From the NCBI GenBank assembly GCA_964627245.1, contig CAZVGS010000004.1:22806-86805 (forward strand): DNA of 64,000 nt, written 5' to 3'. The position numbers and the translations under genes are program-made. How positions within the stretch are numbered: the first letter of the stretch is position 1; each line of letters starts with the position of its first letter. This document shows, in pieces, positions 9,384-37,059 of this stretch. The notes beneath the pieces are model-generated. The model saw nothing but the letters and a program-made list of their open reading frames with translations, did not search any database and had not been told where the DNA came from. The stretch comes from an uncultured Gammaproteobacteria bacterium (GTDB lineage: Bacteria > Patescibacteriota > Microgenomatia > Levybacterales > GWA1-39-11).

Positions 9384-9846
9384 ATTTGTTAAGAGTAATA
9401 GTCTCGGTTGATCCGCTTGGAATATTTGTGATGGTTATAGAATTTGAACCGTCAATAAAATTTACTACCTCACCGCTATCTGACGCGAAAAGAACCGCAT
9501 CATTTTGAAATGTGGAGGAAAGACTGTATGACTCAGGAATCGGAACTGAAAAATTCGCCGTATCCGCCGGATTGTACTCTATACCATGAAACATTATATA
9601 TTGATCTGATAGGACTTTTATGCCGTAGTTGTCAGGTTCTCCCCGTCCTTCGGTGTCTCCAACCATAGCCTTTATTTGCTGAGTTTTGAGATCCGATATA
9701 AGGACAGTTGTTGCGGAACTGCTGGTTGCCACAATTTGTATATTTGACAAACTCACAATTCCTATTCCAAAAAGAAGAGACAATATTCCTATAACGAGCA
9801 TAAGCTCGATCAGCGTAAGTCCTCTTTGTCTTTCAAGTGCTTTCAT
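9358..9846 (-). CDS. type IV pilin / pseudopilin (prepilin N-terminal motif)
   Basis: RGLTLIELMLVIGILSLLFGIGIV motif. Sits directly downstream of pilC. Confidence 0.8.
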   Translation of the reverse strand: MKALERQRGLTLIELMLVIGILSLLFGIGIVSLSNIQIVATSSSATTVLISDLKTQQIKAMVGDTEGRGEPDNYGIKVLSDQYIMFHGIEYNPADTANFSVPIPESYSLSSTFQNDAVLFASDSGEVVNFIDGSNSITITNIPSGSTETITLNKYGTVTNFE

Positions 9847-10917: not shown

Positions 10918-10922
10918 AGATA

Positions 10923-24200: not shown

Positions 24201-24511
24201 GAATCTCTTGAAGTAGATGTCACCTGCTTTACCTTATCAAGTCCTTCAATCGCATCTTCGATAGGTATCGTAATTAGCGACTCGATATCAGACGGACTGC
24301 CCCCCGGCAGAACCGTTGAAACTATAACTAGAGGTATATTTATCGTCGGATTTAATTTTCTCGGAAGGGATACGTAAGCAGAGACCCCAAGGGCTATTAC
24401 GGTCAGAACAACGATAACAACAAGTCTAAAGTTAGTTAGATATTTTGCAAAAAAAGACTTTAAGAGACTATTGTCAAATTTTAATTGTTGTAGATATTTG
24501 GAAGTACTCAT
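21203..24511 (-). CDS. RND-superfamily efflux transporter permease (AcrB/HAE-like, 1102 aa)
   Basis: 12-TM topology with two large extracytoplasmic loops. Conserved TM4 motif LVDDTIVVISAM (AcrB LVDDAIVVVEN). Confidence 0.85.
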   Translation of the reverse strand: MSTSKYLQQLKFDNSLLKSFFAKYLTNFRLVVIVVLTVIALGVSAYVSLPRKLNPTINIPLVIVSTVLPGGSPSDIESLITIPIEDAIEGLDKVKQVTSTSRDSVSVIQIEFESGTDPDKARDDVNSAVTSINDLPEDALDPNVIKLDFENQPIWTFNLVSENNDRASLIRFARSLKNDLEDLSTIDNVSITGIDEQEIQIILKPEAISTYEINPLQLSSVIKGSLSSFPAGIVKTSSSEFSLTIDPGLIDIGDIRDLKLSVAGQIVSLGDISEVKEISKPDQNQSYVLSDGDIRPSVSFNVFRVTSINIEEATHQAEELIDEKLKSEGSDFEVKTIINSSELLNEEFGHLIRDVLITITLVFVVLLIFLGIRQAFISMLSVPFSFLITFFVMQATNIEFSFLATFSLILSLGLLVDDTIVVISAMTAYYRTHKFTPLETALLVFRDFKVAILTTTITTVWAFIPLILGTGIIGEFIKPIPIVVSSTLLGSLFVAIFITVPLMVFLLKPIVPFRVKVLLIILLFTTLLYSLFVFILPQSNIVLIEILAVIAFLFVVSKLWGKMLPGIKERIDIKFDYRRALDNGLIHFNIIERRYQKVLEGILHSKRGRKNTVIFVSVFLIFSFLLVPLGIVKNEFFPKTDEDNLYVSIEFPTGTNFKTVHEEGLVFMENLKKLKEAEFLTLETGQGFSSEMGPGGSGGNSVLYSILLNSDRSKSSSEIAAKLRNDFVNYDKGKISVNEVSGGPPAGADLQIKLFGPDLSVLNSYADKIQDYLVTLQGTTNIDKSIKSGTSKLVFVPDYSKLAANRITVDQLGIWLRIFASGFEVDTINIPGEIDLTEDISIRLSESTQSVEDISRISIPTDNGSVPLLSLGKLELKANPTLITREDGNRTLSVTAGVVAGNNIADLNSNLEDYADSLNLPEGYGWATGGVNEENQNSVNSILQAMIFSFLLIIATMVLQFRSFRRALIVMLVIPLSITGVLIIFALTNTPLSFPALIGVLALFGIVVKNSILVVDKIVKNQEVGMKFTEAIIEASTSRLEPIALTSIATMVGLLPITLTNPLWQGLGGAIIAGLFFSGTIMLFFIPVVYYMIYSRYHTDEL

Positions 24512-24517
24512 GCATTG

Positions 24518-26020
24518 CTATTTGTTAATTTTTACAATTTCTCCTTCGATGACATTTCTCGAGAGAATTACCTGGTCTTTCTTGGAAAGACCTTTGATAA
24601 CCGTTACGTATCCGCCGGTTACACTTCCCAATTCCACCTTTTTGGACGAAGCTTTTCCATTTTCAGCAACATATACATAGGCTTCGTCTTGTGTTTGGAA
24701 AACACTGTCTACCGGAATAAAGGGGTAAGGACTTTCCAAATTTTGACTTATCGGCAAAGTTACAGAAATAAATGAATTGTCGGTGAAATAACTTTTGTAA
24801 TTCTCATCGATAGCAAAAAGTACAGAATAGAGTTGACCGTCTGTTGCTTCGGATGAAATATATGAGGGAGTTGCATCAATAACTTTCCCGTTTACAAAAA
24901 GTTTTGACTTAGAAATTACTGAGACTTTGTCTGCTGTTTCTTTCGAAACCTTAGCATCAACTACAACTTCCCCAGTCGAGCCTGAGAACGTAACCAGAGT
25001 CATTCCCGGTGTGACATTGTCTCCAACCTTAACATGAATTTTTTGAACTGTACCGGCAAATGGGGACGATGGGTACATGTTGGCTTCTTGTATCTTTGCA
25101 AGCTGTAGAGATATGCCAGACGTTTTAAGACTCATCTCAAGACCTTTTTGCTGAAGATCAAGCTGGGCAAGCGCAATATCTTTGCTAATTCTTCCAAGAT
25201 CAACGGCCGCATCATCTTCATTCGTCTGATATTCATTTGCTCTGAGTGAGGCTTGAAGCTGATTGTTCCCTGCCTGCAGCTGAGCTTGAATTTGCTGAAG
25301 GCTTAATATTTGTGCAGGATCCCCATTTGACTGTTCTAGGGATTGTATGTTTGATTTGACAGTATTCAAAATCTCAGAATTCAAATTTATCAAGGTTCTT
25401 GTTTCATCAATGGATACACTTGTTATGTCGCGAAGCGTGTCTGAATTCTCACTTTGTCTATTTGCAAGATCCCTTTGCCTTTCAATAAGTCCTTTTTGAA
25501 TATCGTATGTCTCTTTAGTATTTTGATAAGTGAGGGCTGCAAGCTGTCTCTGAAGCGATGCTGCATTTCCACCCTGATAATTTGATGAAAGGCTGATGAT
25601 TGTTTTGCCTTTTGCAAGTTCTTGTCCCTCTAAAGCATTGATTGATGAGATAATTCCAGGACTTTGGGCAACAATTTTTATGACTCCGCCTTTTTTGACT
25701 TTTCCCTGTACGGTTATTTTTGCATTTTCTCCTATATTAAAAACGTCTACATTTTTAGCTTCGGTTCTCGTTTCAATTTTGGGAGCTTTTACACTAAAAA
25801 TTGTGCTTCCAAGAAAAATAATTATAAACAATGTTATTAGTGCTATAAAAAATGAAGTGAAAGGCTTTTTCTGTGCAAAGACTATCGTCTTTTGATAGCG
25901 ATTTTTTGCTTCAAATTTTTTAATTCTTGAGTCTACTGTTTTTTTGATATCACCAAACTTTGAGAAGCGGTTGACCGGGGCAGATCTTTTTGAGCTTGGC
26001 AACCTTTTTGGTGTTGCCAT
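24518..26020 (-). CDS. efflux periplasmic adaptor (membrane fusion protein, HlyD family) paired with the RND pump
   Basis: N-terminal TM. Biotinyl/lipoyl-like hairpin (GVIKIVAQSPGIISSINALEGQELAKGKTIISL). Long coiled coil. Beta-barrel C-terminus. Confidence 0.75.
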   Translation of the reverse strand: MATPKRLPSSKRSAPVNRFSKFGDIKKTVDSRIKKFEAKNRYQKTIVFAQKKPFTSFFIALITLFIIIFLGSTIFSVKAPKIETRTEAKNVDVFNIGENAKITVQGKVKKGGVIKIVAQSPGIISSINALEGQELAKGKTIISLSSNYQGGNAASLQRQLAALTYQNTKETYDIQKGLIERQRDLANRQSENSDTLRDITSVSIDETRTLINLNSEILNTVKSNIQSLEQSNGDPAQILSLQQIQAQLQAGNNQLQASLRANEYQTNEDDAAVDLGRISKDIALAQLDLQQKGLEMSLKTSGISLQLAKIQEANMYPSSPFAGTVQKIHVKVGDNVTPGMTLVTFSGSTGEVVVDAKVSKETADKVSVISKSKLFVNGKVIDATPSYISSEATDGQLYSVLFAIDENYKSYFTDNSFISVTLPISQNLESPYPFIPVDSVFQTQDEAYVYVAENGKASSKKVELGSVTGGYVTVIKGLSKKDQVILSRNVIEGEIVKINK

Positions 26021-26068
26021 ATTAAGTATCAGATTGTAGCAGTTGCAAGCCTCAAAAACAAGAGATAT

Positions 26069-27280
26069 TTACTCGTATCTAAGTGCATCTATTGGCGACA
26101 ATCTTGCGGCGCGACGGGCGGGGTAAAGTCCAAAAACAATTCCAACAAGCGTTGATACACCAACAGCAATTAGGATGGCAGGTACACTCACGACGAATGG
26201 GATTCCTGCAATTAAAGACACGAGCCATGCTCCGCCAATTCCTATTGAAATTCCAATAAGTCCGCCTATAAGAGTCATGACTACTGATTCCATCAAAAAT
26301 TGGGTTAAGATGTCTTTTTGTTTTGCGCCGATTGCCTTTAAGAGTCCTATTTCTTTTGTTCGCTCTGTAACTGATACAAGCATTATATTCATGACTCCAA
26401 CTCCTCCAACTACGAGTGAAATTCCTGAGATACCTGCTATCATGGCTGTTAATAGTCCGGTAATTGTTTGGACAGTTGATAATATATCCTGAGCGCTTGA
26501 TATTTGAAAATCGTTCTCATCATCTTCATCTAAATTGTGTTGTTCGCGGAGCAGTGCTTCAACATCTTCAATTGTTTGGTTGATGCTATCCTGATCATAG
26601 ACACTAATATCAATTTCCTGGAGTCTTTCTTCACCAAGTATCTCATTTGTTACAATATCAATTGGAATAAAAAGAGATTTGTTTAGAAAGCTTCCCGCAA
26701 GAGCGCTTGAAGAATTAAGAACACCTGTTACTCTAAATATACGTCCGCCAATTCTAAGGGTTTCACCAACCGGATTCGTATCTTCTCCGAAAAAGTTCTC
26801 TGATACATCTGTTCCAATAACAGCAATTCTTTCAGATGATAGAACTTGTTCTTCCGTAATAAATTCTCCATAAATCATATCGGGCCGAAAAATTTCTAAC
26901 GCCTCATGGGTTGATCCATAAACAAGATACTCATCTTCTTGTCCATTTGCCTGCACTTTTGTGGAAGCCATGGCGAAAGGAGCGATATTCCTGATATTGG
27001 TTAATGAAGTGTTGTTTCTTATAATTTCAAGATCATCAAAAGTAAGAGATGTGGATCCGGCAATTGCACTTATTTGACTTGTCCCGGGATTTATTTGAAA
27101 ATAGTCCGTTCCAAATTGTGCAAGTTCATTAGTTATAAATTTAACAGCACCTTGACCGATGGAATAAATGAGAATAACCGAAGTTATTCCAATAATAATT
27201 CCAAGCATAGTCAAGGAAGTTCTCATTTTGTTGACTCTTAAAGCTTGAATTGCGCTTATGAAGATTTCTCTATATTCCAT
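26069..27280 (-). CDS. ABC transporter permease, MacB/FtsX family (MacB periplasmic core domain + 3 C-terminal TMs)
   Basis: N-terminal TM, ~220-aa extracytoplasmic domain, then the FtsX-type TM bundle. Adjacent to its ATPase. Confidence 0.8.
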   Translation of the reverse strand: MEYREIFISAIQALRVNKMRTSLTMLGIIIGITSVILIYSIGQGAVKFITNELAQFGTDYFQINPGTSQISAIAGSTSLTFDDLEIIRNNTSLTNIRNIAPFAMASTKVQANGQEDEYLVYGSTHEALEIFRPDMIYGEFITEEQVLSSERIAVIGTDVSENFFGEDTNPVGETLRIGGRIFRVTGVLNSSSALAGSFLNKSLFIPIDIVTNEILGEERLQEIDISVYDQDSINQTIEDVEALLREQHNLDEDDENDFQISSAQDILSTVQTITGLLTAMIAGISGISLVVGGVGVMNIMLVSVTERTKEIGLLKAIGAKQKDILTQFLMESVVMTLIGGLIGISIGIGGAWLVSLIAGIPFVVSVPAILIAVGVSTLVGIVFGLYPARRAARLSPIDALRYE

Positions 27281-27288
27281 ATGACTTT

Positions 27289-27996
27289 TTAAATCTTTCT
27301 GCCATTTTGTATGTCGCTTACAATTTTCCCGTCGACCAGTTTTATAACTCTTTTTGCGAAGGCTGCAATATCATGCTCGTGAGTAATTATTATTATTGTT
27401 TTTCCATCTTCGTTCAGTTTTTTCATAAAGCTCATTATTTCATGTGATGTTTTGCTGTCCAGGTTTCCCGTCGGCTCATCGGCAAGGATTATGGATGGAT
27501 TCATGACAAGTGCACGGGCAATTGCTACTCTCTGAATTTGACCACCTGAAATACGGTTGGATAAATTATTGGCTTTATCTGCAATTCCAACTCTCTCTAA
27601 AGACTGCATAGCTCTTAAGTTTCTCTCCTTTTCGTCAATTCCTGCATACATCATGGGTTTTTCTACATTCTTAATAACTGTTGTTCTTGAGAGAAGGTTA
27701 AATGATTGGAAAACAAATCCAATCTCCCGGTTTCTTATTTCAGCCAGTTGGTCCTCTGTGTAGCTTGAAATGTTTTTTCCTTTAAGGCGATATTTACCAT
27801 CAGTTGGTACATCTAGAGCTCCCAGAATATGCATGAGAGTGGATTTTCCACTACCCGATGGTCCCATTATGGCGACGAATTCACCTTCATAAATCTTAAG
27901 GCTAATGCCATTAATTGCCCGATAAACTTCATCCTCACCAATCGGATATTCTTTAATTATTTTTTCAAGTTCAATTAAAAGAGGTTCTTTTGGCAT
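27289..27996 (-). CDS. ABC transporter ATP-binding protein (MacB/LolD-type)
   Basis: Walker A GPSGSGKSTL. Signature LSGGQIQRVAIARAL. Walker B ILADEPTGNLD. H-loop. Confidence 0.9.
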   Translation of the reverse strand: MPKEPLLIELEKIIKEYPIGEDEVYRAINGISLKIYEGEFVAIMGPSGSGKSTLMHILGALDVPTDGKYRLKGKNISSYTEDQLAEIRNREIGFVFQSFNLLSRTTVIKNVEKPMMYAGIDEKERNLRAMQSLERVGIADKANNLSNRISGGQIQRVAIARALVMNPSIILADEPTGNLDSKTSHEIMSFMKKLNEDGKTIIIITHEHDIAAFAKRVIKLVDGKIVSDIQNGRKI

Positions 27997-28004
27997 TTCA
28001 TTTG

Positions 28005-29270
28005 TTAGCTTCCGAATAATCCCGGTCTTTGAATATTTTCGTTGGAAAGAGTAGATATTACTTCTTGTCCTTCGGATAAGCCTTTTAGTATTTGTGTTTT
28101 TTCTGTACCACGCACGCCGGTAACAACAGGAATATATTTGAATTTTTCAGGTCTTGAGTTGTCCGGCACTCTTACTGCCCGTCCTCCTTGGTATGGTTTA
28201 ACAGAAGCATTACTGACACTCAAAACATTCTCAAGCTTTTGAGTCGTAATCTCAACATCTGTCGTCATCCCTTGCTTGATTTTATTATCTGAGTCAAGAA
28301 TTGTGATAAATGTTTTGTATGACACAACGCCTTGGTTGTCTGTTCCGACAGCATCAACTCTATCCACCATCCCTTTGTATTTTTTATTTGATATGGCATT
28401 TATTTCAATCTCTGCATTTTGTCCCGGCTGGACTTTCGTTATGTCAGTTTCTGATAGTTCTAATAATATTTCATTCTTGTAGTGAGACATAAGAATTAAT
28501 GACGGAGCAGTTGAGGTGCCTGTAAGAGAAATACTCTTAATAGATACTGAGCTCCCTGTTGTTATAGCAAGGTTTACAATTGTTCCATTGACTGGTGCTG
28601 TAACAGTTGCATCTTGTGTAGCCATATATAGTGCATGGGTTGATGCAACCGAGGATTGTGCTTGTGCAATTGCAGTCTGTTGATCTTTGTATTCTTTTTC
28701 GGCGGCTAACCATGTATCTTGAGCGATTTGAAATTCGGCAGCTTCCCTATTTTTTTCGTCAGGAGTATCATCACTTTTTTCGTATGTTGAATTTGTAGCA
28801 AGATTTCTGAAAGAATCCCATTGGGCATACATGGATGCTCTTAAAGAATTAGCAGCTGTTTGAACCGTATTTAGTGAATTTACGGCAGCCAAGTAATTTG
28901 CTTGTGCCTGGCGCTTTTCCTGTTCTGTTGCACTGCTTTTTACTACAAATAATTTTTCACCTTCTTCTACATACATCCCGTTCTTGACATAGGTTTCAGT
29001 TATGATTCCGTTTGATGGAGAGTAGACATCAATCCTTCCACTTGAGACGACATTTCCCGATTCTGTAACAGTTTCGACAATATCACTTTTTGCTACTTTT
29101 TCTAATGTGTATGGGGGAGGTTTGGTTGCATTTCCTATGATACTTGCGACAAAGGAAAATCCGATTGTGATAATAATTATAATAAGAATTTTTTTCTTTA
29201 GAGATCTTTTTTTGAACCATTCCCATGGTTTTGAGAGAAGAGTCTTAAGACCATTTATTTTTTTTCTCAT
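28005..29270 (-). CDS. efflux periplasmic adaptor (HlyD/MacA-like) of the ABC-type exporter
   Basis: N-terminal TM ILIIIIITIGFSFVASIIG. Coiled-coil hairpin. Barrel-sandwich architecture. Confidence 0.75.
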   Translation of the reverse strand: MRKKINGLKTLLSKPWEWFKKRSLKKKILIIIIITIGFSFVASIIGNATKPPPYTLEKVAKSDIVETVTESGNVVSSGRIDVYSPSNGIITETYVKNGMYVEEGEKLFVVKSSATEQEKRQAQANYLAAVNSLNTVQTAANSLRASMYAQWDSFRNLATNSTYEKSDDTPDEKNREAAEFQIAQDTWLAAEKEYKDQQTAIAQAQSSVASTHALYMATQDATVTAPVNGTIVNLAITTGSSVSIKSISLTGTSTAPSLILMSHYKNEILLELSETDITKVQPGQNAEIEINAISNKKYKGMVDRVDAVGTDNQGVVSYKTFITILDSDNKIKQGMTTDVEITTQKLENVLSVSNASVKPYQGGRAVRVPDNSRPEKFKYIPVVTGVRGTEKTQILKGLSEGQEVISTLSNENIQRPGLFGS

Positions 29271-29359
29271 ACATATATATTAACATTTAATATTAACATT
29301 GAAGGACACTTCTTAAAACTCTATTTTTCAAATAATGCTATAACGCCTCTTGACACAGT

Positions 29360-30202
29360 TTGATGCGTTTGCTAATATCCACAATTACAACTGCCCCGTT
29401 ACTCGGGGCATTTTTTGTAAATATGACAACACAAAATCAAATAACAGCGTCAAAAAAAGTTGCGCTAACTCTCACCCTTCCGACAATAAATTTTTCGGCA
29501 CTTGCTGTAAAAACCAAAGTTCTTTTATCAAATATTTACAGACCGCTTTCCCAGAATGCCTCAAAAACCGTAAGTGAAGCTTCCTCAAAAGCAAGAAGTT
29601 TTAAGCTTCCAAATCTTAAGGACAAATTCAAATTTAACAAAAGGAGTATCAAATTTATTTTTCCTGCTGTAATTGGGATAGTTATAATTATTTCAATTGT
29701 TTCAATAGTAAGATCGTTTCCTGATGCTCAAAGCAGACCGGTTAATGATAGCAAAGACGTATCCCAAAATGCATTGACAACAATAAATTTGGATAGAAAA
29801 TTCGCTTTTCCATTAAAAGATGAAAACGGTAAAGAGGTAGGGAAATTTGATTATATTATCCAGACATCACAGCTTCAGAGCCAAATTATTGTAAAAGGAC
29901 AAAGAGCAACCGCAATTGACGGAAAGGTTTTTCTAATCCTAAATCTTAAAATAACAAATAATTTAGAACAAACAATACAGCTTAATACTCGAGACTATCT
30001 AAGGTTTATTGTTAAAAGCAATGAAAATGAGCAGTTAGCGCCTGATATTCACAATGATCCTGTCGAAGTTCAGGCAATTTCGACAAAATACACAAGAGTC
30101 GGTATTACAATAGATGAGGTAGATGCTAAAAAACTAATTCAACTTAAGGTTGGTGAAATTGGAGGAGAAAAGCAGAATATTGATCTTAATTTTAAGTACT
30201 AA
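29360..30202 (+). CDS. hypothetical single-pass membrane protein with extracytoplasmic beta-rich domain (DUF4352-like?)
   Basis: TM FIFPAVIGIVIIISIVSIV. C-terminal domain loosely resembles DUF4352. The start codon is uncertain (29360 or 29423). Confidence 0.45.
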   Translation: MMRLLISTITTAPLLGAFFVNMTTQNQITASKKVALTLTLPTINFSALAVKTKVLLSNIYRPLSQNASKTVSEASSKARSFKLPNLKDKFKFNKRSIKFIFPAVIGIVIIISIVSIVRSFPDAQSRPVNDSKDVSQNALTTINLDRKFAFPLKDENGKEVGKFDYIIQTSQLQSQIIVKGQRATAIDGKVFLILNLKITNNLEQTIQLNTRDYLRFIVKSNENEQLAPDIHNDPVEVQAISTKYTRVGITIDEVDAKKLIQLKVGEIGGEKQNIDLNFKY

Positions 30203-30238: not shown

Positions 30239-30439
30239 ATGGCACAAAGTACGCAAAAAAAAATTCCGCAACACCTGCTTTCCGAAATTAAAGATGCGTT
30301 GGAAAGTGTCAAATTTGGAAGTATCGAAATCTTCGTTCAAAATAGTGTTGTTACGCAAATTACAGTTAGAAATATCCACAAGACAAGCGTTGAAATAGAA
30401 AAAAGCTCAAATATAGAAAATACAATTAAAGCAATATAG
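30239..30439 (+). CDS. small YezD/DUF2292-like protein
   Basis: LSEIKDALESVKFGSIEIFVQNSVVTQITVRNIHKTS matches the YGSVxIxIQDGxVVQIE-type signature of DUF2292. Assignment is from memory. Confidence 0.5.
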   Translation: MAQSTQKKIPQHLLSEIKDALESVKFGSIEIFVQNSVVTQITVRNIHKTSVEIEKSSNIENTIKAI

Positions 30440-30467
30440 CAATATTGTAATAAGTTCCAAATAGGGC

Positions 30468-30496
30468 TTGACAGTAATCTATATATATTATATAAG
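30468..30496 (+). promoter_or_regulatory. sigma70-type promoter (TTGACA-N17-TATAAG) upstream of the first repeat-protein gene
   Basis: TTGACA at 30468-30473. 17-nt spacer. TATAAG at 30491-30496. Confidence 0.5.
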
Positions 30497-30522
30497 TTAG
30501 ACAAATCGAAAGAGCTGACCGC

Positions 30523-30578
30523 AAACGGAGGCTTCTTCACACAATTTAGTTTTGTGTGCGGAAGTCTCCGTTTTTTTG
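30523..30578 (+). promoter_or_regulatory. long leader hairpin followed by U-tract (intrinsic-terminator/attenuator-like) between the promoter and the start codon of repeat-protein gene 1
   Basis: AACGGAGGCTTC (30524-30535) pairs with GAAGTCTCCGTT (30561-30572), with one G-U wobble. The loop contains an inner CACACAA/TTGTGTG stem. TTTTTTT follows. Confidence 0.55.
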
Positions 30579-30666
30579 TTTCTTGGGGCTACCGGAAATA
30601 AAAATAGGCGGGAGAGATGAAGTGCTCTTGAAAAAGAAATCTTATACAAAAGGAGGTGAAATAAAT

Positions 30667-31887
30667 ATGACAAATTTCAAAAAACAAATCGTTTCAGCAG
30701 CAGCAGCAGGAGCTATGCTTCTTAATGTAGCAGTTCCAGCGTTCGCTTCTACTGAAATCGTAATTTCAGGAAATGGTGCAGATTCTTCTAACTGGTCAAC
30801 AGTTAGCCAATCAAACACCAATTCCGTTACACAAAATAACTCAGCAAACGTTACCAATAATGTAGACGCAGATGCATCAACTGGTGGCAATGACGCTAAC
30901 TTCAATACTGGAGGAGACGTTAATGTTGACACTGGAGATGCGACAACTGACGTTAAGGTTGCCAATGCTCTTAATAGCAATTCTGCAGATGTAGATTGCT
31001 GTGGAGCAGGTAATACTGACGTTGAAATTTCCGGAAACGGAGCAGATTCTGTAAATGGAGTTTCCGTTGGATCTTCCAACACAACTTCTGTTTCTCAGAA
31101 CAATAAAGCAAACGTCAAAAACAATATTGATACGGATGCTAAGACTGGTTACAACGATGCAAATTCCAATACTGGAGGAGACGTTACTGTCAATACCGGA
31201 ATTGCAAAAGCTAGCGCTACTGTTGCTACAATAGCTAACGTTAACTCAGCAAAAGTTGGAGGAGGACTTGGTTTATCTAACCCTTCTGCAAAATTTGTAA
31301 TCTCAGGAAATGGAGCAAATTCAAATAACTCCATTCAAGCAGGACTCACAAATGTTACCGCCGTAGAGCAAGATAACAGTGCTCATGTTAAGAATAACGT
31401 TGATGCAGATGCATCAACTGGTGGTAATGACGCTAACTTTAACACCGGAGGAGAAGTAACTATCGACACCGGAGATGCGACAACTGATGTTGACGTTGCT
31501 AACGCCGTTAACTTCAACCACGCAGATGTTGATTGCGGGTGTCTTATGGATGTCCTTGCAAAAGTCGCCGGAAACGGAGCTGATACAAAAAACATCATTA
31601 CTTTAGGTCTTGCTAATGTGCAATCAATGGCACAGGACAACGGAGCTTGCCTATACAACGATGTAGATGGAGAAGCAAAGACCGGTGATAATGACGCGAA
31701 CTCCAACACTGGAGAAGCTGATACTGATCCAACTGTTAACACCGGAAACGCTACATCAAATACTGATGTAGAAAATGAAGGTAATGTTAATAATGTTGGT
31801 GGACTTTTCAGCATGCCTGAAATGCCTGATGTCGATTTCGACTTCAGTTTTGCATTTCTTTGGGCTTGGTTTGGAATGTCAGTTTAA
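30667..31887 (+). CDS. secreted tandem-repeat protein, paralogue 1 (four ~90-aa N/T/G/D-rich repeats with Cys pairs; hydrophobic C-terminus)
   Basis: SD AAAGGAGGTGA 8 nt upstream of the ATG at 30667. Signal peptide MTNFKKQIVSAAAAGAMLLNVAVPAFA. Repeats share ISGNGADS...NVTNNVDADASTGGNDANFNTGGDV..DTGDATTDV...DCC/DCGC. The ORF-track start at 30556 is an upstream extension. Confidence 0.75.
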   Translation: MTNFKKQIVSAAAAGAMLLNVAVPAFASTEIVISGNGADSSNWSTVSQSNTNSVTQNNSANVTNNVDADASTGGNDANFNTGGDVNVDTGDATTDVKVANALNSNSADVDCCGAGNTDVEISGNGADSVNGVSVGSSNTTSVSQNNKANVKNNIDTDAKTGYNDANSNTGGDVTVNTGIAKASATVATIANVNSAKVGGGLGLSNPSAKFVISGNGANSNNSIQAGLTNVTAVEQDNSAHVKNNVDADASTGGNDANFNTGGEVTIDTGDATTDVDVANAVNFNHADVDCGCLMDVLAKVAGNGADTKNIITLGLANVQSMAQDNGACLYNDVDGEAKTGDNDANSNTGEADTDPTVNTGNATSNTDVENEGNVNNVGGLFSMPEMPDVDFDFSFAFLWAWFGMSV

Positions 31888-32012
31888 TTTGGTTAATGTA
31901 GGGTGAATTGCTAGCACTTCGGCAGGACACCCTACAACCAAAATAGGAATAGATAGAAGATAAAAAATATAGAAAACAATTTAATAATAGGACAATTAAA
32001 AAATAAATAATT

Positions 32013-34229
32013 ATGAATATTGGACAACTCAAAAAATTAATAGCTTCATTTTTGATATTGGTACTATTAACTGGAAAATTGGTTTTAATCCCAGTTGCGG
32101 TATATGCGGAGGATGCGCCAACGCCTCCTGAAAATACAATGGTTGCGCCAACCGCGCCAACCGCGCCAACGCCTCCTGAAAATACAATGGTTGCGCCAAC
32201 CGCGCCAACCGCGCCAACGCCTCCTGAAAATACAATGGTTGCGCCAAACGCGCCAACCGCGCCGGAAGCACCAACTGGGCCAAACTCTTCCGAAGAACAG
32301 GCAATCCAATCAGCAGTAAATGAGCAGCCTCAAGAGGGAGGTAGTGGATCAGGAAATGTTGGAGATACAGCTATTAATACTGGAGATGGTAACAATAGCG
32401 GTTACATTAACAACACTGGAAACAACAATTTAGCAACCGGTTTTTGCCCAACATGCGCCGGAAGTGCAACTGTTGCAAATACAGGTAACGGAGCAGGATC
32501 AACAAATAATGGTTCAGCAACCACAACTACAAACAATAATCTTGGGCAGGGAAACAGCGCAGTTGTTGCAAACGACCTTAATCAAGCAACAGTAACAGGT
32601 GGAAATAACGCTTCATATAATGTAGGCAACTCATCTATAACAACCGGGGATGCAAATGTAACAGGAACAATCATTAACTCTATTAATACCAACGTTGATG
32701 GTGTAATGGTCAGTGAATTTAACATCGCAGATGATCATACTGGGGATATAATTTTAGACTTTGCTGCAAATTGTGTACAAGGCTGTAACGGACAAAGCAT
32801 TGCTAATAACACTGGAAATGGAGATGGATCAACAAATACTGCAGCAACCGACACAACGACTAATAACACTACAAATCAAACAAATGATGCTAATGTTTCA
32901 AATGGCATGACACTTGTTGCTAACTCCGGAGATAATGACTCAAGCTTTAATACAGGTGGCAACTCATCTATAACAACCGGGGATGCTAATGTGTCAGCAA
33001 ATGCTGTTACTCTTGCAAATAACAACTTTGCCGGAGACGTAATATACGGAGTAGTAAATATATTTGGAGATTTAATTGGAGACATAATACTTACTCAAGA
33101 GATGATGGATACTATCTGCGGAGGAACATGCACAGGATCAACAACTGCTATCAACTCTGATAATGGTGCAAATTCCACAAATACTGCTAACGCAACGAAT
33201 ACTACAAACAATAACACTTTCCAATCAAATGATGCGGATATCAGTAACCTTTTGACAGTTGATGCAACAACCGGAGGTAATAACACAAGCTATAACACAG
33301 GTGGAAACTCAAGCATGACGACTGGTGATGCAAATGTGGATGTAAATGTACTTAATATTGCCAATATGAACCTTGCAGGCGGCACATACTGGTTAGTACT
33401 TGTGAATGAGGCAGGAAACTGGATCGGGAAGATAATGGGTGGGCAAGAAGGTTCAAATGTCGCAGGATCTTCTCTAATGGAATTTCTTATCGACCCAATA
33501 ACCGGTGCAGTAACTGCTATGACAAGCGGAAACGGCAACAATTCAACCAATACTTCAACAGCAAACAACACTACCAATAACACAATTAACCAAACAAATA
33601 ACGCAGTTATCAACAACAACTTGAATCTCACAGCAAATACAGGTGGAAATGATGCAAATTACAATACGGGTGGTAACTCAAACATCGTAACAGGGGATGC
33701 TAACATAGTTGCAAATATAGTTAATTTTGTTAACAACAATATAGTAGGTGACGGAAAATTGGTTGTCACGGTTATCAATGTATTCGGAAGCTGGTTTGGG
33801 GACTTTATTGGACCGGGACAGACGAAGACTGCTTCGACTGCACATGAGTCAAATAACCAACAGCAAGTTGCCGTAAATACTAATAACTCTAATAGCAATC
33901 CAAACAATTCTTTCTCAACTGTTGCAGGAGCAGCAGGGTCAGCACAAGTAGAGAGTCAGGTCAGCGGTACGGTTGGGGCTGCAAAAAGCAAAGCTTTTGC
34001 ATTTGGTAATGTTCAAGGATCAAATACATCTAATAAGACCAATTCTGAAGCTACTGTTGCAAAAAGCGTAGGGCAAGACGGTTCTGCGGCAGTAGCTGAT
34101 AAAAAACTGACTATAAATCTAGCATGGTTATTACTTGCACTTCCTTTAACAGGGTTTGCACTTCTGATTAAAAAATCATTTGTACCTGTCCAAAGACTCG
34201 CGATTCGGGGAATAAATATCTTCTTATGA
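32013..34229 (+). CDS. secreted tandem-repeat protein, paralogue 2 (738 aa; N-terminal Pro-rich 16-aa x3 repeats then 6+ N/T/G-rich repeats; C-terminal LPLTG-containing hydrophobic tail)
   Basis: Signal peptide. APTPPENTMVAPTAPT x3. Repeated skeleton NTGNG.GSTNT...NQ.N.A.V.N...A.TGGN...NTGGNSSITTGDANV. Cys pairs GFCPTCAG, CVQGCNG, CGGTCTG. C-terminus ...LAWLLLALPLTGFALLIKKS. Confidence 0.75.
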   Translation: MNIGQLKKLIASFLILVLLTGKLVLIPVAVYAEDAPTPPENTMVAPTAPTAPTPPENTMVAPTAPTAPTPPENTMVAPNAPTAPEAPTGPNSSEEQAIQSAVNEQPQEGGSGSGNVGDTAINTGDGNNSGYINNTGNNNLATGFCPTCAGSATVANTGNGAGSTNNGSATTTTNNNLGQGNSAVVANDLNQATVTGGNNASYNVGNSSITTGDANVTGTIINSINTNVDGVMVSEFNIADDHTGDIILDFAANCVQGCNGQSIANNTGNGDGSTNTAATDTTTNNTTNQTNDANVSNGMTLVANSGDNDSSFNTGGNSSITTGDANVSANAVTLANNNFAGDVIYGVVNIFGDLIGDIILTQEMMDTICGGTCTGSTTAINSDNGANSTNTANATNTTNNNTFQSNDADISNLLTVDATTGGNNTSYNTGGNSSMTTGDANVDVNVLNIANMNLAGGTYWLVLVNEAGNWIGKIMGGQEGSNVAGSSLMEFLIDPITGAVTAMTSGNGNNSTNTSTANNTTNNTINQTNNAVINNNLNLTANTGGNDANYNTGGNSNIVTGDANIVANIVNFVNNNIVGDGKLVVTVINVFGSWFGDFIGPGQTKTASTAHESNNQQQVAVNTNNSNSNPNNSFSTVAGAAGSAQVESQVSGTVGAAKSKAFAFGNVQGSNTSNKTNSEATVAKSVGQDGSAAVADKKLTINLAWLLLALPLTGFALLIKKSFVPVQRLAIRGINIFL
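32115..32270 (+). repeat. three tandem copies of a 48-nt coding repeat (encodes APTPPENTMVAPTAPT) inside paralogue 2
   Basis: Unit GCGCCAACGCCTCCTGAAAATACAATGGTTGCGCCAACCGCGCCAACC repeats at 32115, 32163 and 32211. The third copy is slightly diverged. Confidence 0.85.
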
Positions 34230-35341
34230 TGAAAAAGGCTGCACTTTTTGTGGCCTGCCTAATCCTAAATTTAGCATTTGTTTCAAAGGCGCAAGCAGAA
34301 CAGATAGTTATAGAAGTAACCAACAACGGGGGCAGTTCTTCTAATGAAGTTAATACAGTTCAGCAATCAACAACTCAAGTTAACCAAAGCAATGAGGAAA
34401 ATATAGAAAATAACGTTGATAATAACGCAAATACAGGTAATAACGACGCCTCTTCGAATATGGGTGGGAACGCAAATATCAATACCGGAGACATTAATTT
34501 AACAACAAATGTTAGTAATGAGAATATTAACTCAAATAGCGTTACTATTGACACCTGCTGCAATCAAGGGAGTCAGATAAGGGTGAGTGGAAATGGGGAA
34601 AATTCAACTAATGTTATTTCTGCTAATAATTACAACACAGCATCATCATTCCAAAAAAATTCGACAAATATCTCAAATAACATAAATATTTATGCTAATA
34701 CTGGATACAATAAAGCTTCGTATAACGGTGGAGATACATCTATTGTAACGGGAAATATAAAGGCTAATACGGCTGTCATCAACAAAAATATTAATAATAG
34801 TTTTGCATCAATCGATAGTTTTGTGGGTAGCGCAATTATCAAAATATCCGGGAATGGAGCAGGTTCTGAGAATGTTGTCTATCTTGGTCAAAGTAACTCG
34901 GCAAATTCTGAAGTAGTAAATATTGCAAACATCATAAATAACATTGATCAAATTCTAAATACTGGAGGAAATGAAGCACTAAAAAATATAGGCGACGTTG
35001 CAGTTATTACAGGAGATATTGAAAGCAATATAACTGTCGAAAATGAAAATATCAACAGCAGTATTGCTGATATAGATTGTGCCTGTGATGACCCGGAGGA
35101 TCCACCTACGCCTCCAACTCCGCCGGTTTTGCCAACAAATCCATCGATAACACCTGATGTATCTTACGTTCAACCATCTTCAGGGAATTCTGATGGGGGA
35201 TCCTCAGCCGGCAGTACGCTTCCTGCCACTGGAACCACAATTCCATACACTTTGATTGCAACACTTATTCTATTTTTTCTTCTCCTTTCAGGACTGTATC
35301 TGCGCTTCCATTTAGCAAATGCACCACCTGCACGAGTTTAG
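34226..35341 (+). CDS. secreted tandem-repeat protein, paralogue 3, with C-terminal LPATG sortase sorting signal
   Basis: Signal peptide MMKKAALFVACLILNLAFVSKAQA. N/T/G-rich repeats carry the TGNNDASSNMGGNANINTGDINL pattern and CC / CAC Cys pairs. C-terminus is PTPPTPP linker, LPATG, hydrophobic TLIATLILFFLLLSGLYL, then RFH. ATGA overlap with paralogue 2. Confidence 0.8.
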   Translation: MMKKAALFVACLILNLAFVSKAQAEQIVIEVTNNGGSSSNEVNTVQQSTTQVNQSNEENIENNVDNNANTGNNDASSNMGGNANINTGDINLTTNVSNENINSNSVTIDTCCNQGSQIRVSGNGENSTNVISANNYNTASSFQKNSTNISNNINIYANTGYNKASYNGGDTSIVTGNIKANTAVINKNINNSFASIDSFVGSAIIKISGNGAGSENVVYLGQSNSANSEVVNIANIINNIDQILNTGGNEALKNIGDVAVITGDIESNITVENENINSSIADIDCACDDPEDPPTPPTPPVLPTNPSITPDVSYVQPSSGNSDGGSSAGSTLPATGTTIPYTLIATLILFFLLLSGLYLRFHLANAPPARV

Positions 35342-35353
35342 TTTTCAAACCGC

Positions 35354-35376
35354 AAAAACCCCGAAAGGGGTTTTTT
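35354..35376 (+). terminator. rho-independent terminator after the LPATG protein gene
   Basis: AAAAACCCC GAAA GGGGTTTTTT hairpin with a U-tract. Confidence 0.75.
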
Positions 35377-35447
35377 GATGGTTTGGATAACTTATCCTGA
35401 GCATGCCGAAGGGTTGATTTATCCACATTTTTTGGTAGTATCGCAAC

Positions 35448-36005
35448 ATGAGTAAAAAAATACAAAAAAGAATTGGGGAAGCAATGATAACAACTGCCAT
35501 TTTAGGCTTAACTTCTATTTATTATCCATATGTAAAAGAATTATTATTTCCAGCAGTCTATACCGTTGAAGAAAAGAGAAGCGTTGAGTTTTCCATAGAA
35601 ATCCCGTCATTAAATGTTTTCTCGAAAGTTATTGAGAGGGTTGATGCATTTAATAAAGATATTTATATAGAGGAACTCAAGAAAGGTGTTGCGCATGCAA
35701 AGAATTCAAAGCTTCCTGGGGAGGGTGGAACTGTGTACCTTTTTGCACATTCATCAGATGTTCCATGGAGAATAACGCGCTACAATACTGCCTTTTTCAA
35801 GCTTGAGAATGTAAAAAATGGGGATAAAATTTTGATAAACAGAAATGGAGAAAAGTTTGAGTACGAAGTGTTTGATAAAAAAGTTGTCTGGCCTAATGAA
35901 GTAGAGTATCTAAAAGAGGATCAGGGGGATATTTTGATACTTCAGACCTGTACGCCTATTGGAACGGACCTGCAGAGGCTTTTGGTTATTGCAAAACCCA
36001 CCTAA
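35448..36005 (+). CDS. sortase (transpeptidase) family protein
   Basis: N-terminal TM anchor. His in LFAHSSD. Active-site Cys in ILQTCTP (TLxTC motif). Downstream Arg in DLQRLLV. Adjacent to the LPATG substrate. Confidence 0.8.
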   Translation: MSKKIQKRIGEAMITTAILGLTSIYYPYVKELLFPAVYTVEEKRSVEFSIEIPSLNVFSKVIERVDAFNKDIYIEELKKGVAHAKNSKLPGEGGTVYLFAHSSDVPWRITRYNTAFFKLENVKNGDKILINRNGEKFEYEVFDKKVVWPNEVEYLKEDQGDILILQTCTPIGTDLQRLLVIAKPT

Positions 36006-36088
36006 GAATTAAGTATTAAGAATTTATTTCTTATATACTAACTTTTAAAACCTTTAGTGGTGGTTGTAATCAATACTATGGATTACAA

Positions 36089-36116
36089 TAACCCCCCTCG
36101 GGCAAGGAGGGGGTTA
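36089..36116. terminator. GC-rich hairpin between convergent sortase gene and paralogue 4 (bidirectional terminator)
   Basis: CCCCCCTC ... GAGGGGG stem (36093-36099 / 36107-36113) with a 7-nt loop. Flanked by AT-rich sequence. Confidence 0.6.
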
Positions 36117-36140
36117 TGCGTTTCAATCGAATTGAAACAT

Positions 36141-36734
36141 TTAGTTAGTGTTAGTAGATCCACCAACTTCTACTCCAACTGCATTACTTGCGTCTCCAGT
36201 TGTTATGGAGTTGTTTCCGCCTGAATTGAAGCTAGAGCTGTTTCCTCCGGTACTTGAGCTTGTACTTACCCAAGTGTTGACCACGCTGGTGTTATTTTGA
36301 GTTACGGAATTTGAATTCCACTCAAAAATTCCAACATGATTGGAGCTTCCTGGTCCATTTCCGGAAATAGTCACGTCGTTTGAAGAGCCGGATTCACAAC
36401 CGCAATCATTTGAATTGGTGTTGGTTCCTCCGGTTACAGATACGCCGACTACATTTGAAGCACTGCCGGTCATGATGGTATTTGTGCCACCCATGTTAAA
36501 GCTTGACGAATTGTATCCGGTTTTAGCCTTTGCATTTACTCCGGTATTTACAACAGTTGTATTATTTTGAGTAACACTTTTTTTGGCCACAGTTGTTACA
36601 TGTGCTTTATTCCAGGACCATGCGCTGTTATTTTTTATTGTTACAGTGTTTGCAGCAAATGATGCCGGTGCTACCACTGACGCCATCATCGCTCCGATTG
36701 CAAGACCTGATGTTATTTTTTGCTTTATATTCAT
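36141..36734 (-). CDS. secreted tandem-repeat protein, paralogue 4 (197 aa, two repeats, CGC Cys cluster)
   Basis: SD GGGGGTGA before the ATG. Signal peptide MNIKQKITSGLAIGAMMASVVAPASFA is homologous to that of paralogue 1. Repeats carry VTQNNT.VVNT...TGGNSSSFN.GG...TGDASNAVGV. Confidence 0.75.
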   Translation of the reverse strand: MNIKQKITSGLAIGAMMASVVAPASFAANTVTIKNNSAWSWNKAHVTTVAKKSVTQNNTTVVNTGVNAKAKTGYNSSSFNMGGTNTIMTGSASNVVGVSVTGGTNTNSNDCGCESGSSNDVTISGNGPGSSNHVGIFEWNSNSVTQNNTSVVNTWVSTSSSTGGNSSSFNSGGNNSITTGDASNAVGVEVGGSTNTN

Positions 36735-36798
36735 TTATTTCACCCCCTTTCAATTGAAATCTGCCTGCCAAATTTCTTTTGGAATTAGTATCACCGCA

Positions 36799-36828
36799 CA
36801 AAAAAACCCTTCGACAAGCTCAGGGTTT
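36799..36828 (-). promoter_or_regulatory. hairpin + U-tract in the 5' leader (minus strand) of paralogue 4; attenuator/terminator-like
   Basis: On the minus strand AAACCCT-N11-AGGGTTT is followed by TTTTTTT. It lies ~70 nt upstream of the start codon at 36734. Confidence 0.45.
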
Positions 36829-37059
36829 ATAAGTGTTTGTAAGTTGTTACTAACATAGGCAGTTCAAAAGTATTTATTGCCTCATCTGGCTTACGCTCAT
36901 AATCGGCAGTTCAAAAAAACAACGGAATTAATTCTGTGGGGGCAAGAAACCATGTTCATTATATGATTTGCATTGCCAGACCTGTCAAGACTAACAATCT
37001 ATATACAATTGTTTGTTAAGATATCATACGAAAGAAGTAAGAGATTTAGCCTATATTCC

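Follow-up and report, generated by a model that had tools for sequence, protein, structure and literature searches.

Streptomyces chaplins are divided between ChpA-C, which are anchored by a class E sortase, and ChpD-H, which are free. The anchored long forms hold the free short forms, and the chaplins are thought to co-assemble into a surface layer (PMC5618241). LPXTG-anchored beta-helix adhesins (PfbA of S. pneumoniae and the binding region of the L. reuteri SRRP) are also among the closest known systems. In curli, CsgB acts as the nucleator and CsgA is the major subunit, and in Gram-positive pili of class C (SpaA-type) a sortase gene lies beside that of its LPXTG substrate, as in the locus described here. 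Pam pili (PamA/PamB) are CPR-restricted, Sec-exported filaments with paired cysteines that are reported from Microgenomatia as well (bioRxiv 10.64898/2026.03.03.709456).

The present locus lies in a 64-kb stretch of Microgenomates DNA (the window, to which all coordinates refer) and encodes four paralogous secreted proteins, P1-P4, adjoining a sortase. The best explanation of the locus as a whole, at a probability of about 0.55, is that it forms the core of a Microgenomates-wide cassette for a surface structure. As in the chaplins, a single family of paralogues includes members with a sortase signal and secreted members without one, and cysteine pairs are conserved (PMC5618241). The likeness is in system architecture only, and Pfam Chaplin/DUF320 (PF03777) gave no match at E ≤ 1. 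Chaplin domains are hydrophobic amyloid units and have about 50 aa, whereas the cassette unit has 80-120 aa, is rich in N, G, T and D, and is predicted to form solenoid rods. Unlike the chaplins, the cassette includes a transmembrane (TM)-anchored paralogue, P2, forms one tightly conserved locus that carries its own sortase, and belongs to a CPR host. Structurally, the P1 and P3 models came closest to the RTX beta-roll, curli CsgA and FapC, which have N/G/Q-rich imperfect repeats, and no motif or profile match to RTX, curlin or FapC was found. Their units have 9, 18 or 22 residues, whereas the cassette unit has 88 aa in about five coils; RTX and curli proteins are exported by T1SS or CsgG, and the cassette proteins by Sec with a sortase in a monoderm-like cell. 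Unlike SpaA-type pili, the cassette has no pilin-motif Lys, CnaB fold, set of several LPXTG proteins, sortase lid or C-terminal sortase TM segment. Pam pilins are two-domain Ig-like proteins with donor-strand exchange and chaperone-usher-like partners, whereas the cassette, with its repeat solenoids and sortase, is set apart by the Pam description.

Gene order and conservation of the cassette

The cassette genes, in their conserved order, were as follows.

29423..30202, plus strand: U280, a DUF4352-like membrane protein (ORF), first gene of the conserved cassette
30239..30439, plus strand: small cytoplasmic DUF2292 (YezD/OscA-like) protein of 66 aa (Pfam DUF2292, 1.1e-9)
30667..31887, plus strand: P1, with a signal peptide and four repeats of 88-91 aa
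32013..34229, plus strand: P2, with a signal peptide, a half unit and four repeats of 110-123 aa
34226..35341, plus strand: P3, with a signal peptide, three repeats of 87-90 aa, and CC and CxC pairs
35448..36005, plus strand: sortase of 185 aa (Pfam Sortase, 4.9e-25)
36141..36734, minus strand: P4, with a signal peptide, two repeats and one CxC pair

The P1-P4 and sortase ORFs had been listed in an earlier sequence-only reading, and all five were found at these positions, as was the ATGA overlap between P2 and P3. The U280 and DUF2292 genes, the P1 leader RNA and the intrinsic terminator between P3 and the sortase gene were absent from that reading. It had also suggested a reduced-genome bacterium, which agrees with the CPR host, and a comparison of the repeat together with the sortase in relatives. 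This comparison showed conserved synteny in most of 80 species-level Microgenomates loci with near-constant protein lengths, and the gene order was seen in Levy-, Woese-, Gottesman-, Ames-, Davies-, Chisholm- and Roizmanbacteria. The class-wide cassette, the four secreted paralogues, the dedicated sortase and the conserved RNA hairpin make the cassette a strong candidate for a main surface structure of Microgenomates cells. A literature search found no description of the cassette or its repeat proteins.

In U280 a cytoplasmic N-terminal part is joined through a single TM segment to an extracellular domain with weak likeness to DUF4352, which was matched by 6/25 orthologues (best E 8e-4, every match sub-threshold). 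Its longest ORF starts at TTG 29360, with ATG 29423 the likely start, and it gave no match to PDB sequences. A U280 homologue was located directly 5' of DUF2292-P1 in 82/85 loci. The DUF2292 gene, second in the cassette and immediately 5' of the P1 promoter and leader, was present in 79/85 loci; its product scored 4.4e-7 with NCBIfam OscA, below cutoff.

Repeat family and predicted fold

A repeat profile made from the window's own units was run on the ORFs of the window. Four units were identified in P1, four full units and a half unit (residues 94-145) in P2, three in P3 and two in P4, with per-unit E-values of 1e-22 to 1e-33, and no ORF in the 64-kb window beyond P1-P4 was matched. The N/G/T/D-rich unit was 79-123 aa long. 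The earlier count of 2-8 copies is hence replaced by 2 to 4.5, with no protein having 8, and the earlier unit length of ~70-95 aa held for P1, P3 and P4 (79-91 aa) but not for P2, where each full repeat is lengthened by a hydrophobic insertion of ~25 aa. Paralogy of the four genes, as first proposed, was confirmed by this common profile and by BLASTP. P1 aligned with P3 at 40% identity over 291 aa (E 5e-33), with P4 at 40% over 179 aa (E 7e-22) and with P2 at 32% over 317 aa (E 7e-15), while shuffled controls gave a top score of 25 bits. The P1-P4 pairwise alignment (P1 with P4) starts at residues 2-3, in line with the homologous signal peptides seen previously.

The repeat gave no match in Pfam, NCBIfam or PDB sequences, which bears out its earlier placement outside any named domain. 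The family was widespread in Microgenomates, with 3108 clusters at 50% identity matching at E ≤ 1e-3, and across the class each paralogue kept an almost fixed copy number, repeat count and length. The reported cysteine pairs (CC, CxC, CxxC and CxxxC) were present and kept in orthologues, mostly in even counts (P1 4, P2 4-6, P3 4 and P4 2), and the conserved skeleton positions and cysteine pairs were common to all four proteins. CPR genomes are enriched in MdbA-like oxidoreductase and VKOR (PMC6744442). Sequons were numerous, as had been noted; however, their density exceeded composition only marginally in P2 (34 vs 24.2 in shuffles, with 0.013 of shuffles reaching the observed number) and not in P1 (7 vs 11.3), P3 (9 vs 11.9) or P4 (8 vs 9.1). 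Composition accounts for this density, and the glycosylation once suggested from it was not upheld.

Independent AlphaFold (AF2) models of P1 and P3 were both all-beta and matched one beta-solenoid set (RTX, SufD, CsgA, FapC, CARP and RsaA), with weak and generic likeness (Foldseek TM-scores ~0.06). This structure prediction, also proposed earlier, points to a beta-solenoid-like fold for the repeat. The 88-residue unit showed a hydrophobicity sub-period of ~15-17 residues and a conservation period of 2. The statement that the repeat is not RTX was right by motif, although in structure RTX beta-rolls are among the closest matches. That P1-P4 are Ca-binding RTX-like matrix proteins or other non-structural solenoids (ice-binding or enzyme-like), with a sortase link for P3 only, is very improbable. 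G, N and D abound in the repeat turns (TGGNDAN, NTGGD), and Ca-dependent antifreeze proteins and alginate epimerase R-modules were among the weaker structural matches, both in favour of such a role. However, the solenoid likeness is as weak as these scores indicate, no GGxGxD nonapeptide or Pfam HemolysinCabind match was found, the proteins carry Sec signal peptides and not a T1SS C-terminal signal, and a catalytic domain is absent.

P3 and the adjacent sortase

The C-terminal part of P3 consisted of a Pro-rich linker, LPATG (residues 332-336, nt 35219-35233), a TM helix of ~23 hydrophobic residues followed by YLRFH, and a conserved G.YLR......P tail. The sorting signal recognised earlier was thus found in full, and its three parts (LPXTG-like motif, hydrophobic stretch and positive tail) were kept in orthologues. 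No other ORF of the 64-kb window carried such a signal, and each related locus had one. Generic anchor HMMs on P3 were sub-threshold (E 0.24).

The neighbouring gene encodes a sortase, as had been read, based on the Pfam match and on its catalytic His (LFAHS), Cys168 (ILQTC) and Arg177, which aligned with those of 8t28 (E 1.5e-11); the nearest solved structures were of class C. TIGR01076 scored 63 bits (cutoff 39), while NCBIfam sortase class models were all below cutoff, the best being class C NF033745 (69.6 bits vs 160). The only membrane segment is N-terminal. LPxTG was paired with (I/V)LQTC in 40/40 loci and a GLSxTSG-like signal with TL(F/Y)TC in 19/19. This co-variation of sorting signal and active site (59/59 loci) is partly confounded by phylogeny, and both types occurred in Woesebacteria-labelled MAGs. 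Given the conserved tripartite signal and the co-variation, the adjacent sortase very probably acts on P3. One further feature was located between the two genes.

35354..35376, plus strand: predicted intrinsic terminator AAAAACCCCgaaaGGGGTTTTTT between P3 and sortase

This terminator was missed by the automated scan because its stem has only 4 G-C pairs, and with it P3 and the sortase gene would not be simply co-transcribed.

The sequence-only reading had proposed a sortase-anchored or sortase-polymerised fibre. Anchoring agrees with the P3 signal and the co-variation, but polymerisation was not supported, with no conserved Lys, a single LPXTG protein and a missed class C cutoff. A covalent SpaA/RrgB-type pilus, in which P3 and possibly other paralogues would be joined head-to-tail by Thr-Lys isopeptide bonds, is highly improbable, even though the sortase gene adjoins its substrate gene and the sortase is closest to class C, the pilus class, among both solved structures and NCBIfam models. 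Each locus has one sorting-signal protein, so a second LPXTG partner is lacking, and the best-conserved Lys reached 56% in 80 aligned P3 sequences (that of the window and 79 homologues). No CnaA/CnaB or pilin Pfam match was found, the predicted fold is a solenoid and not Ig-like, and the sortase has no C-terminal TM segment. In addition, ~20 residues separate its membrane segment from strand beta1, too few to accommodate a lid (DP[WFY]). Assignment as a pilus-polymerising class C system was rejected by the score, lid and TM segment of the sortase and by the Lys, Cna domains and LPXTG count of its candidate pilins.

P2 and P4

Three further features belong to the P2 and P4 genes.

32115..32263, plus strand: tandem DNA repeat of 48 bp, 3.1 copies, 99% identity (Tandem Repeats Finder)
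36092..36113, no strand assigned: GC-rich hairpin where the sortase and P4 genes converge, reported by the automated scan for the minus strand
36735..36990, minus strand: P4 leader, with TTGACA-19 nt-TATAAT at ~36958-36988 (sequence reading)

P2 was arranged as a Pro-rich N-terminal extension (APTPPENTMVAPTAPT, encoded by the tandem repeat), the repeats, an N/S/A-rich spacer of ~100 aa and a C-terminal 'INLAW' TM anchor with a basic tail. Orthologues kept INLAW, the TM segment and the K/R tail at a median identity of 51%. The LPLTG pointed out in the P2 tail is present, but it lies inside the TM segment and is unconserved in 75 orthologues, which argues against a sorting signal.

The P4 sequence had no anchor of any kind. 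Its Shine-Dalgarno sequence is strong (GGGGGTG), and a P4-type gene of ~200 aa was found on the opposite strand 3' of the sortase gene in 40 loci. The hairpin between the convergent genes is probably a bidirectional terminator. The P4 leader contained a terminator-like hairpin, AAACCCTGAGCTTGTCGAAGGGTTTTTTT (~36797-36826), with a motif match at 36808-36824; covariance model R1, built for the P1 leader, gave no match there, and one related locus (L021) carried the P1-type leader motif on its P4-type gene.

P1 and its leader RNA

The longest P1 ORF starts at GTG 30556; GGAGGTG precedes ATG 30667, and full-length orthologues (406-420 aa) begin at the equivalent of this ATG. The CC and CxC pairs are placed after repeats 1 and 3, and the C-terminus is a short conserved hydrophobic peptide (consensus FSFNFAALWAFFGM), with no LPXTG and no full TM segment. 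P1 and P2 shared the top conservation within the cassette. Between close relatives P1 diverged fast (59% identity vs 88% for NusA), which would equally fit a protein facing the environment or a host. P1 and P4 each had a consensus Shine-Dalgarno sequence and their own promoter-like element. The elements flanking P1 were as follows.

30468..30496, plus strand: promoter-like element TTGACA-17 nt-TATAAG (sequence reading; kept in near relatives by alignment)
30514..30625, plus strand: structured, conserved P1 leader RNA (RNAalifold and covariance model R1)
31898..31935, plus strand: GC-rich hairpin GTAGGGTG...CACCCTAC without U-run, 3' of P1 (sequence reading)

The promoter-like element, which would serve P1, escaped the automated scan, whose rule requires a T at position 6. 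The leader combines an invariant GCUGACCGC with a hairpin of 21 bp whose base (AAACGGAGGC/GCCUCCGUUU) does not vary and whose upper stem co-varies, plus a U-run and then a conserved GAAGUGC; hairpin and U-run together therefore look like an intrinsic terminator. R1 scored 80.5 bits at this site and matched 75 times at E ≤ 2e-5, at one site in each matched locus and always just 5' of P1, among the 81 sequences searched (window and 80 loci). Stem cells were paired in 94% vs 81.5% in shuffles, double changes were present at 14 pairs and the fold z-score was -4.6. Rfam gave no gathering-threshold hit in the window, and only chance-level hits at E ≤ 10 in 30430-30680. The hairpin is probably an attenuator or stabiliser of P1 output, and this unlisted class-wide element with clear covariation may be a new regulatory RNA. 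The hairpin 3' of P1 is possibly an mRNA 3' stabiliser or partial terminator.

Proposed assembly

P1-P4 would be exported by Sec and fold into rods of the 80-120-aa repeat, differing mainly in how they are retained at the cell. P3 would be cleaved at LPATG by the dedicated sortase next to it and joined covalently to peptidoglycan, for which the perfect co-variation of signal and active site gives indirect support, while P2 would be held in the membrane by its C-terminal TM helix behind the ~100-aa spacer. P1 is probably the most highly expressed paralogue, its output being set separately by its own promoter and leader hairpin. The homologous repeat domains may associate with one another, so that P3 and P2 would hold in place, and might also template, a coat or fibril consisting mainly of P1; P4 would be an unanchored minor or terminal component, and the conserved close cysteine pairs would lock the assembly by disulfides. 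The three distinct conserved C-terminal endings and one free form support this model, and a wall-tethered assembly of the four paralogues with a chaplin-like organisation is somewhat favoured by the analysis.

P1-P4 could instead be independent monomeric adhesins for host cells or substrates, the anchors only setting their distance from the wall and the genes being clustered by tandem duplication rather than joint assembly. Fast evolution of P1 between close relatives, the recently expanded tandem repeat at the distal end of P2, and the host-attached life ascribed to CPR bacteria (PMC11623550) would fit this explanation. It is nevertheless unlikely: adhesins usually vary, whereas the number, repeat count and length of these paralogues are near-fixed class-wide, the four proteins have skeleton positions and cysteine pairs in common, and P1 and P4, anchored to neither wall nor membrane, would not stay with the cell if they acted alone.

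A more specific form of the wall-tethered assembly is tentative. It would be a new monoderm surface polymer in which P1 (with P4) solenoids stack end-to-end or side-by-side on the homologous P3 (wall) and P2 (membrane) templates, locked by vicinal-cysteine disulfides. Such a polymer might be the coat or fibrils seen on Microgenomates cells, with its output metered by a new attenuator-type leader possibly read by the DUF2292 protein.

Significance for Microgenomates

Microgenomates are a large uncultured part of the CPR, and their envelope proteins are almost entirely annotated as 'hypothetical'. A near-universal Microgenomates sortase family had already been noted (PMC6744442), and its substrate had not been assigned. 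The analysis pairs this sortase with a neighbouring conserved substrate and its three paralogues, all from a repeat family that lacks annotation, and describes two co-evolving sortase/signal types, of which the GLSxTSG-like motif was unreported before. If P1-P4 form the main coat or fibrils, cryo-ET and proteomics could be aimed at them, as could the capture of cells by antibody or affinity methods, and they would also supply a new solenoid repeat for structural study.

Repeat proteins and their genes

The locus encodes four paralogues (P1 to P4), all of them exported and all members of a single repeat family that has no annotation. They belong to a fixed, class-wide gene set, hereafter the cassette, within which P1 is under separate, structured control. 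All the ORFs named in the sequence-only reading were present. The cassette genes are as follows:

29423-30202 (+), U280, single-pass membrane protein with a weakly DUF4352-like ectodomain
30239-30439 (+), DUF2292/YezD-like cytoplasmic protein of 66 aa
30667-31887 (+), P1, secreted repeat protein
32013-34229 (+), P2, secreted repeat protein
34226-35341 (+), P3, secreted repeat protein
35448-36005 (+), sortase
36141-36734 (-), P4, secreted repeat protein

The best start of P1 was the ATG at 30667, which has GGAGGTG 8 nt upstream. A 406-aa protein of identical sequence begins at the equivalent position, as do hundreds of full-length P1 orthologues, and P1 was therefore read from this codon. The ATGA overlap between P2 and P3 was also found as described.

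The four proteins were cut into units and aligned, and the resulting profile was run on every ORF of the window. It counted 4 units in P1, 4 full units and a half unit in P2, 3 in P3 and 2 in P4 (per-unit E 1e-22 to 1e-33), so that the 2-8 copies proposed earlier were too many, and no further ORF in the 64 kb matched. Unit length was 79-91 aa, except in P2, where a hydrophobic insertion in each unit brings it to 110-123 aa. The unit consensus was xIxISGNGAxSxNx...VxQxNxAxVxNxVxxxAxTGGNDAxxNTGGxxxIxTGDAxxxVxVxNxxNxNxAxVDCxC. The proposed paralogy was borne out by BLASTP scores far above those of shuffled controls, and BLASTP likewise supported the homology of the P1 and P4 signal peptides. The close cysteine pairs noticed from the sequence are real (CC, CxC, CxxC and CxxxC after particular units); they are kept in orthologues of P1, P2, P3 and P4 alike, and their numbers are mostly even. 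The N-x-S/T sequons, described earlier as very dense, occurred at the density expected from composition, with P2 alone marginally above it, and N-glycosylation was dropped on this ground. The Pro-rich N-terminal extension of P2 is encoded by a 48-bp tandem repeat at 32115-32263 (3.1 copies, 99% identity), apparently a recent one whose length may vary. The P2 called in the related contig L003 has 667 aa; in L001 and L002, which are relatives of L003, it has 732 aa.

Scans of P1-P4 with Pfam and NCBIfam assigned no family, PDB sequences gave zero matches to the P1 profile or the single-repeat profile, and no phage genome gave a tblastn match to P1. At E<=1e-3, a single-unit profile searched against 1.84 billion representatives matched 3108 clusters (50% identity), of which 2164 remained at E<=1e-10. 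By length, the matches form three classes, P1-type proteins of about 410-430 aa, others of about 500 aa, and P2-type proteins of about 720-800 aa; members of 8-10 units are rare. Named members come from Microgenomates lineages, and one 9-unit protein is labelled Parcubacteria (P0243, MBI4127555.1; 1183 aa, 9 matched repeat stretches). Its MAG carries the label Parcubacteria group, so the repeat may also occur outside Microgenomates.

The AlphaFold2 model of P1 was all-beta (pLDDT 73.9, pTM 0.64). That of P3 was weaker (pLDDT 65.5); its Pro-rich linker is disordered and it has a helix at the C-terminus. Foldseek against PDB returned no significant match. The 88-residue unit showed hydrophobicity sub-periods of 15-17 residues and a conservation period of 2, and conserved G/N turns lie about 17-18 residues apart within it. 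These sub-periods and the turn spacing fit about five two-sided coils per unit. With moderate confidence, a beta-solenoid-like rod was taken as the working fold.

Conservation of the cassette

Orthologue look-ups, together with a scan that took one genome per species (231 confirmed relatives, 80 kept), gave a total of 85 loci, which were re-annotated by BLAST against the proteins of the window. The conserved order was U280, DUF2292 protein, P1, P2, P3-type protein, sortase and, on the opposite strand, P4-type protein. The positions of U280 and the DUF2292 gene were as conserved as those of the repeat proteins in about 80 loci. The cassette was present in MAGs named Levy-, Woese-, Gottesman-, Ames-, Davies-, Chisholm- and Roizmanbacteria. 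Many of the cassette-bearing MAGs (L006, L008, L009, L012 and others) are titled 'uncultured Gammaproteobacteria bacterium', which on a Microgenomates-type cassette looks like a placeholder or mislabel.

Protein lengths were almost constant across loci, with median identities to the window of 53% for P1, 51% for P2, 45% for the sortase, 41% for P3 and 39% for P4. Among close relatives P1 changed faster than NusA (59% versus 88% identity), and P1 identity levelled off near 50%; the skeleton is rigid and the remaining positions are variable. The flanking efflux genes and nusA-infB were common only to the nearer relatives, so the efflux block at 21203-29270 is probably outside the system. This block (-), directly upstream of the cassette, comprises an AcrB-type transporter, two HlyD-type adaptors and a MacB-type ABC pump. 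Type IV pilus genes (PilB-like T2SSE, PilC-like T2SSF) adjoin a 989-aa ORF without a Pfam match at 6414-12611 (-) and represent a second surface-appendage system within the window.

Sortase, sorting signals and anchoring

As had been read from the sequence, P3 carries the LPATG motif followed by a hydrophobic stretch and then a basic tail, and it is the sole ORF of the window with such a signal. The following gene was confirmed as a sortase with His, Cys and Arg all in place. Across the related loci, two types of P3 signal were found. Type one has LPxTG, a TM segment and a conserved G.YLR......P tail, and was paired with a sortase carrying (I/V)LQTC.P.GT..RLL in 40 of 40 loci. Type two has GL(S/A)x(T/A)(S/A)(G/S), a TM segment and a basic tail, often in a shorter protein, and was paired with a TL(F/Y)TCSGF.D.KRL sortase in 19 of 19 loci (e.g., L017, L020, L021, L031, L047 and L068). 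The GL(S/A)x(T/A)(S/A)(G/S) motif is not known to occur with the described sortase classes A-F. Taken as raw counts of loci, signal and sortase types thus agreed without exception in 59. Phylogeny alone is unlikely to explain the pairing because both types occur in MAGs labelled Woesebacteria. Of the evidence for the predicted processing of P3 by the neighbouring sortase, this co-variation is the strongest, and the enzyme and P3 appear to form a dedicated sortase-substrate pair.

The sortase reached no NCBIfam class model at cutoff, and its nearest solved relatives were class C enzymes (E 1.5e-11). It has neither space for a lid nor a C-terminal TM segment, and no conserved lysine was present in P3 orthologues. 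These features, the presence of only one substrate in each locus and a fold that is not Ig-like argue against a covalent pilus; lysine conservation, substrate number and sortase class were the grounds for rejecting it. A sortase family has been noted as nearly ubiquitous in Microgenomates (PMC6744442).

The C-termini of the other paralogues differed. In P2 orthologues, a conserved (I/V)NLAW opens a TM helix that is followed by K/R residues at the C-terminus. The LPLTG in the P2 tail was not conserved in orthologues and was rejected as a second sortase signal. In P1 orthologues the C-terminal end is a short hydrophobic peptide (consensus FSFNFAALWAFFGM) that falls below the length of a typical TM segment and lacks a basic tail, and no C-terminal feature was found in P4. 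The four C-termini therefore point to one scaffold in wall-linked, membrane-anchored, weakly hydrophobic-tailed and free versions.

Leader RNA and expression signals

The signals around the cassette genes were as follows:

29350-29410, promoter-like TTGACA-17-TAATAT and, at once, a strong terminator-like hairpin (TGCCCCGTTACTCGGGGCA plus T-run), at the U280 5' edge
30514-30625 (+), conserved structured P1 leader RNA
35396-35412 (+), 17-nt hairpin motif CCUGAGCWUGYCGAAGG in the sortase leader
36808-36824 (-), the same motif in the P4 leader

The element at the U280 edge falls inside the longest-ORF extension of U280. P1 is preceded by a promoter-like TTGACA-17-TATAAG (+) and a leader that spans about 170 nt. 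P3 and the sortase gene are separated by a clean intrinsic terminator, and the convergent sortase and P4 genes by a GC-rich hairpin. The P4 leader has its own promoter-like element and terminator-like hairpin. No tRNA or other RNA genes were found in the window. The 17-nt motif occurred exactly twice in 64 kb (0 expected) and gave 12 matches with up to 2 mismatches in 1.2 Mb of related loci, sporadically ahead of P1, P2, sortase or P4 and in other places; it was dropped as a locus-specific element for this sporadic distribution.

In 74 related loci the P1 leader RNA occupies the corresponding position, about 40-250 nt upstream of P1; it is more conserved than the P1 coding sequence. It consists of an invariant GCUGACCGC, a 21-bp hairpin, a U-run and a conserved GAAGUGC. 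The basal ten pairs of the hairpin (AAACGGAGGC/GCCUCCGUUU) are invariant and the upper eleven co-vary. Double changes occurred at fourteen pairs, 94% of cells were paired versus 81.5% in shuffles, and the covariation score was 0.463 versus 0.209, with slid controls <=0.15. It matched no Rfam family. A covariance model found the leader in 75 of 81 sequences (the window and 80 loci), one per locus and always just upstream of P1. Elsewhere in 1.25 Mb it was found only in a Gottesmanbacteria locus, where a weaker copy (ACCGCAAACGGAGGC...GCCTCCTTTT; L021:13406-13524, -) directly precedes a P4-type gene; the element is thus not exclusive to P1. No shared leader motif was found upstream of P4, P2 or the sortase in the window.

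The element looks like an intrinsic terminator within the leader and is probably an attenuator or else a 5' stabilising hairpin for the P1 mRNA. The invariant hairpin base and flank suggest a trans-acting factor, for which the DUF2292 protein is a candidate by position alone. U280 and the DUF2292 protein could have a role in assembly or as a leader regulator.

Proposed assembly and comparison with known systems

The paralogues may assemble with one another, at a probability of roughly 0.55: P3 and P2 would tether a coat or fibril in which P1 is the chief constituent and P4 a lesser one, and the cysteine pairs would form disulfides that stabilise it. CPR genomes are enriched in MdbA-like oxidoreductases and VKOR (PMC6744442). 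The main rival, that P1-P4 are independent adhesins, was considered rather unlikely. For the tethered coat or fibril, the closest precedent in organisation is the chaplins, whose free short forms are thought to be held in the surface layer by sortase-anchored long forms (PMC5618241); chaplins and P1-P4 have no sequence relationship. The Pam pili already described in CPR (bioRxiv 10.64898/2026.03.03.709456) are different, Ig-like pili, unlike the predicted solenoids of the cassette, and were set apart by fold and by operon content as given in their description.

No description of such a cassette turned up in the paper library searched on CPR/Patescibacteria sortase systems and on beta-solenoid repeats. 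Sortases with LPXTG substrates are already known as a kind of system, and surface proteins that fold as beta-solenoids are known too. New are the family to which the repeats belong, an architecture of four paralogues with graded anchoring and its near-universal conservation in one CPR class, and also the second sorting-motif/sortase pair and the leader RNA.
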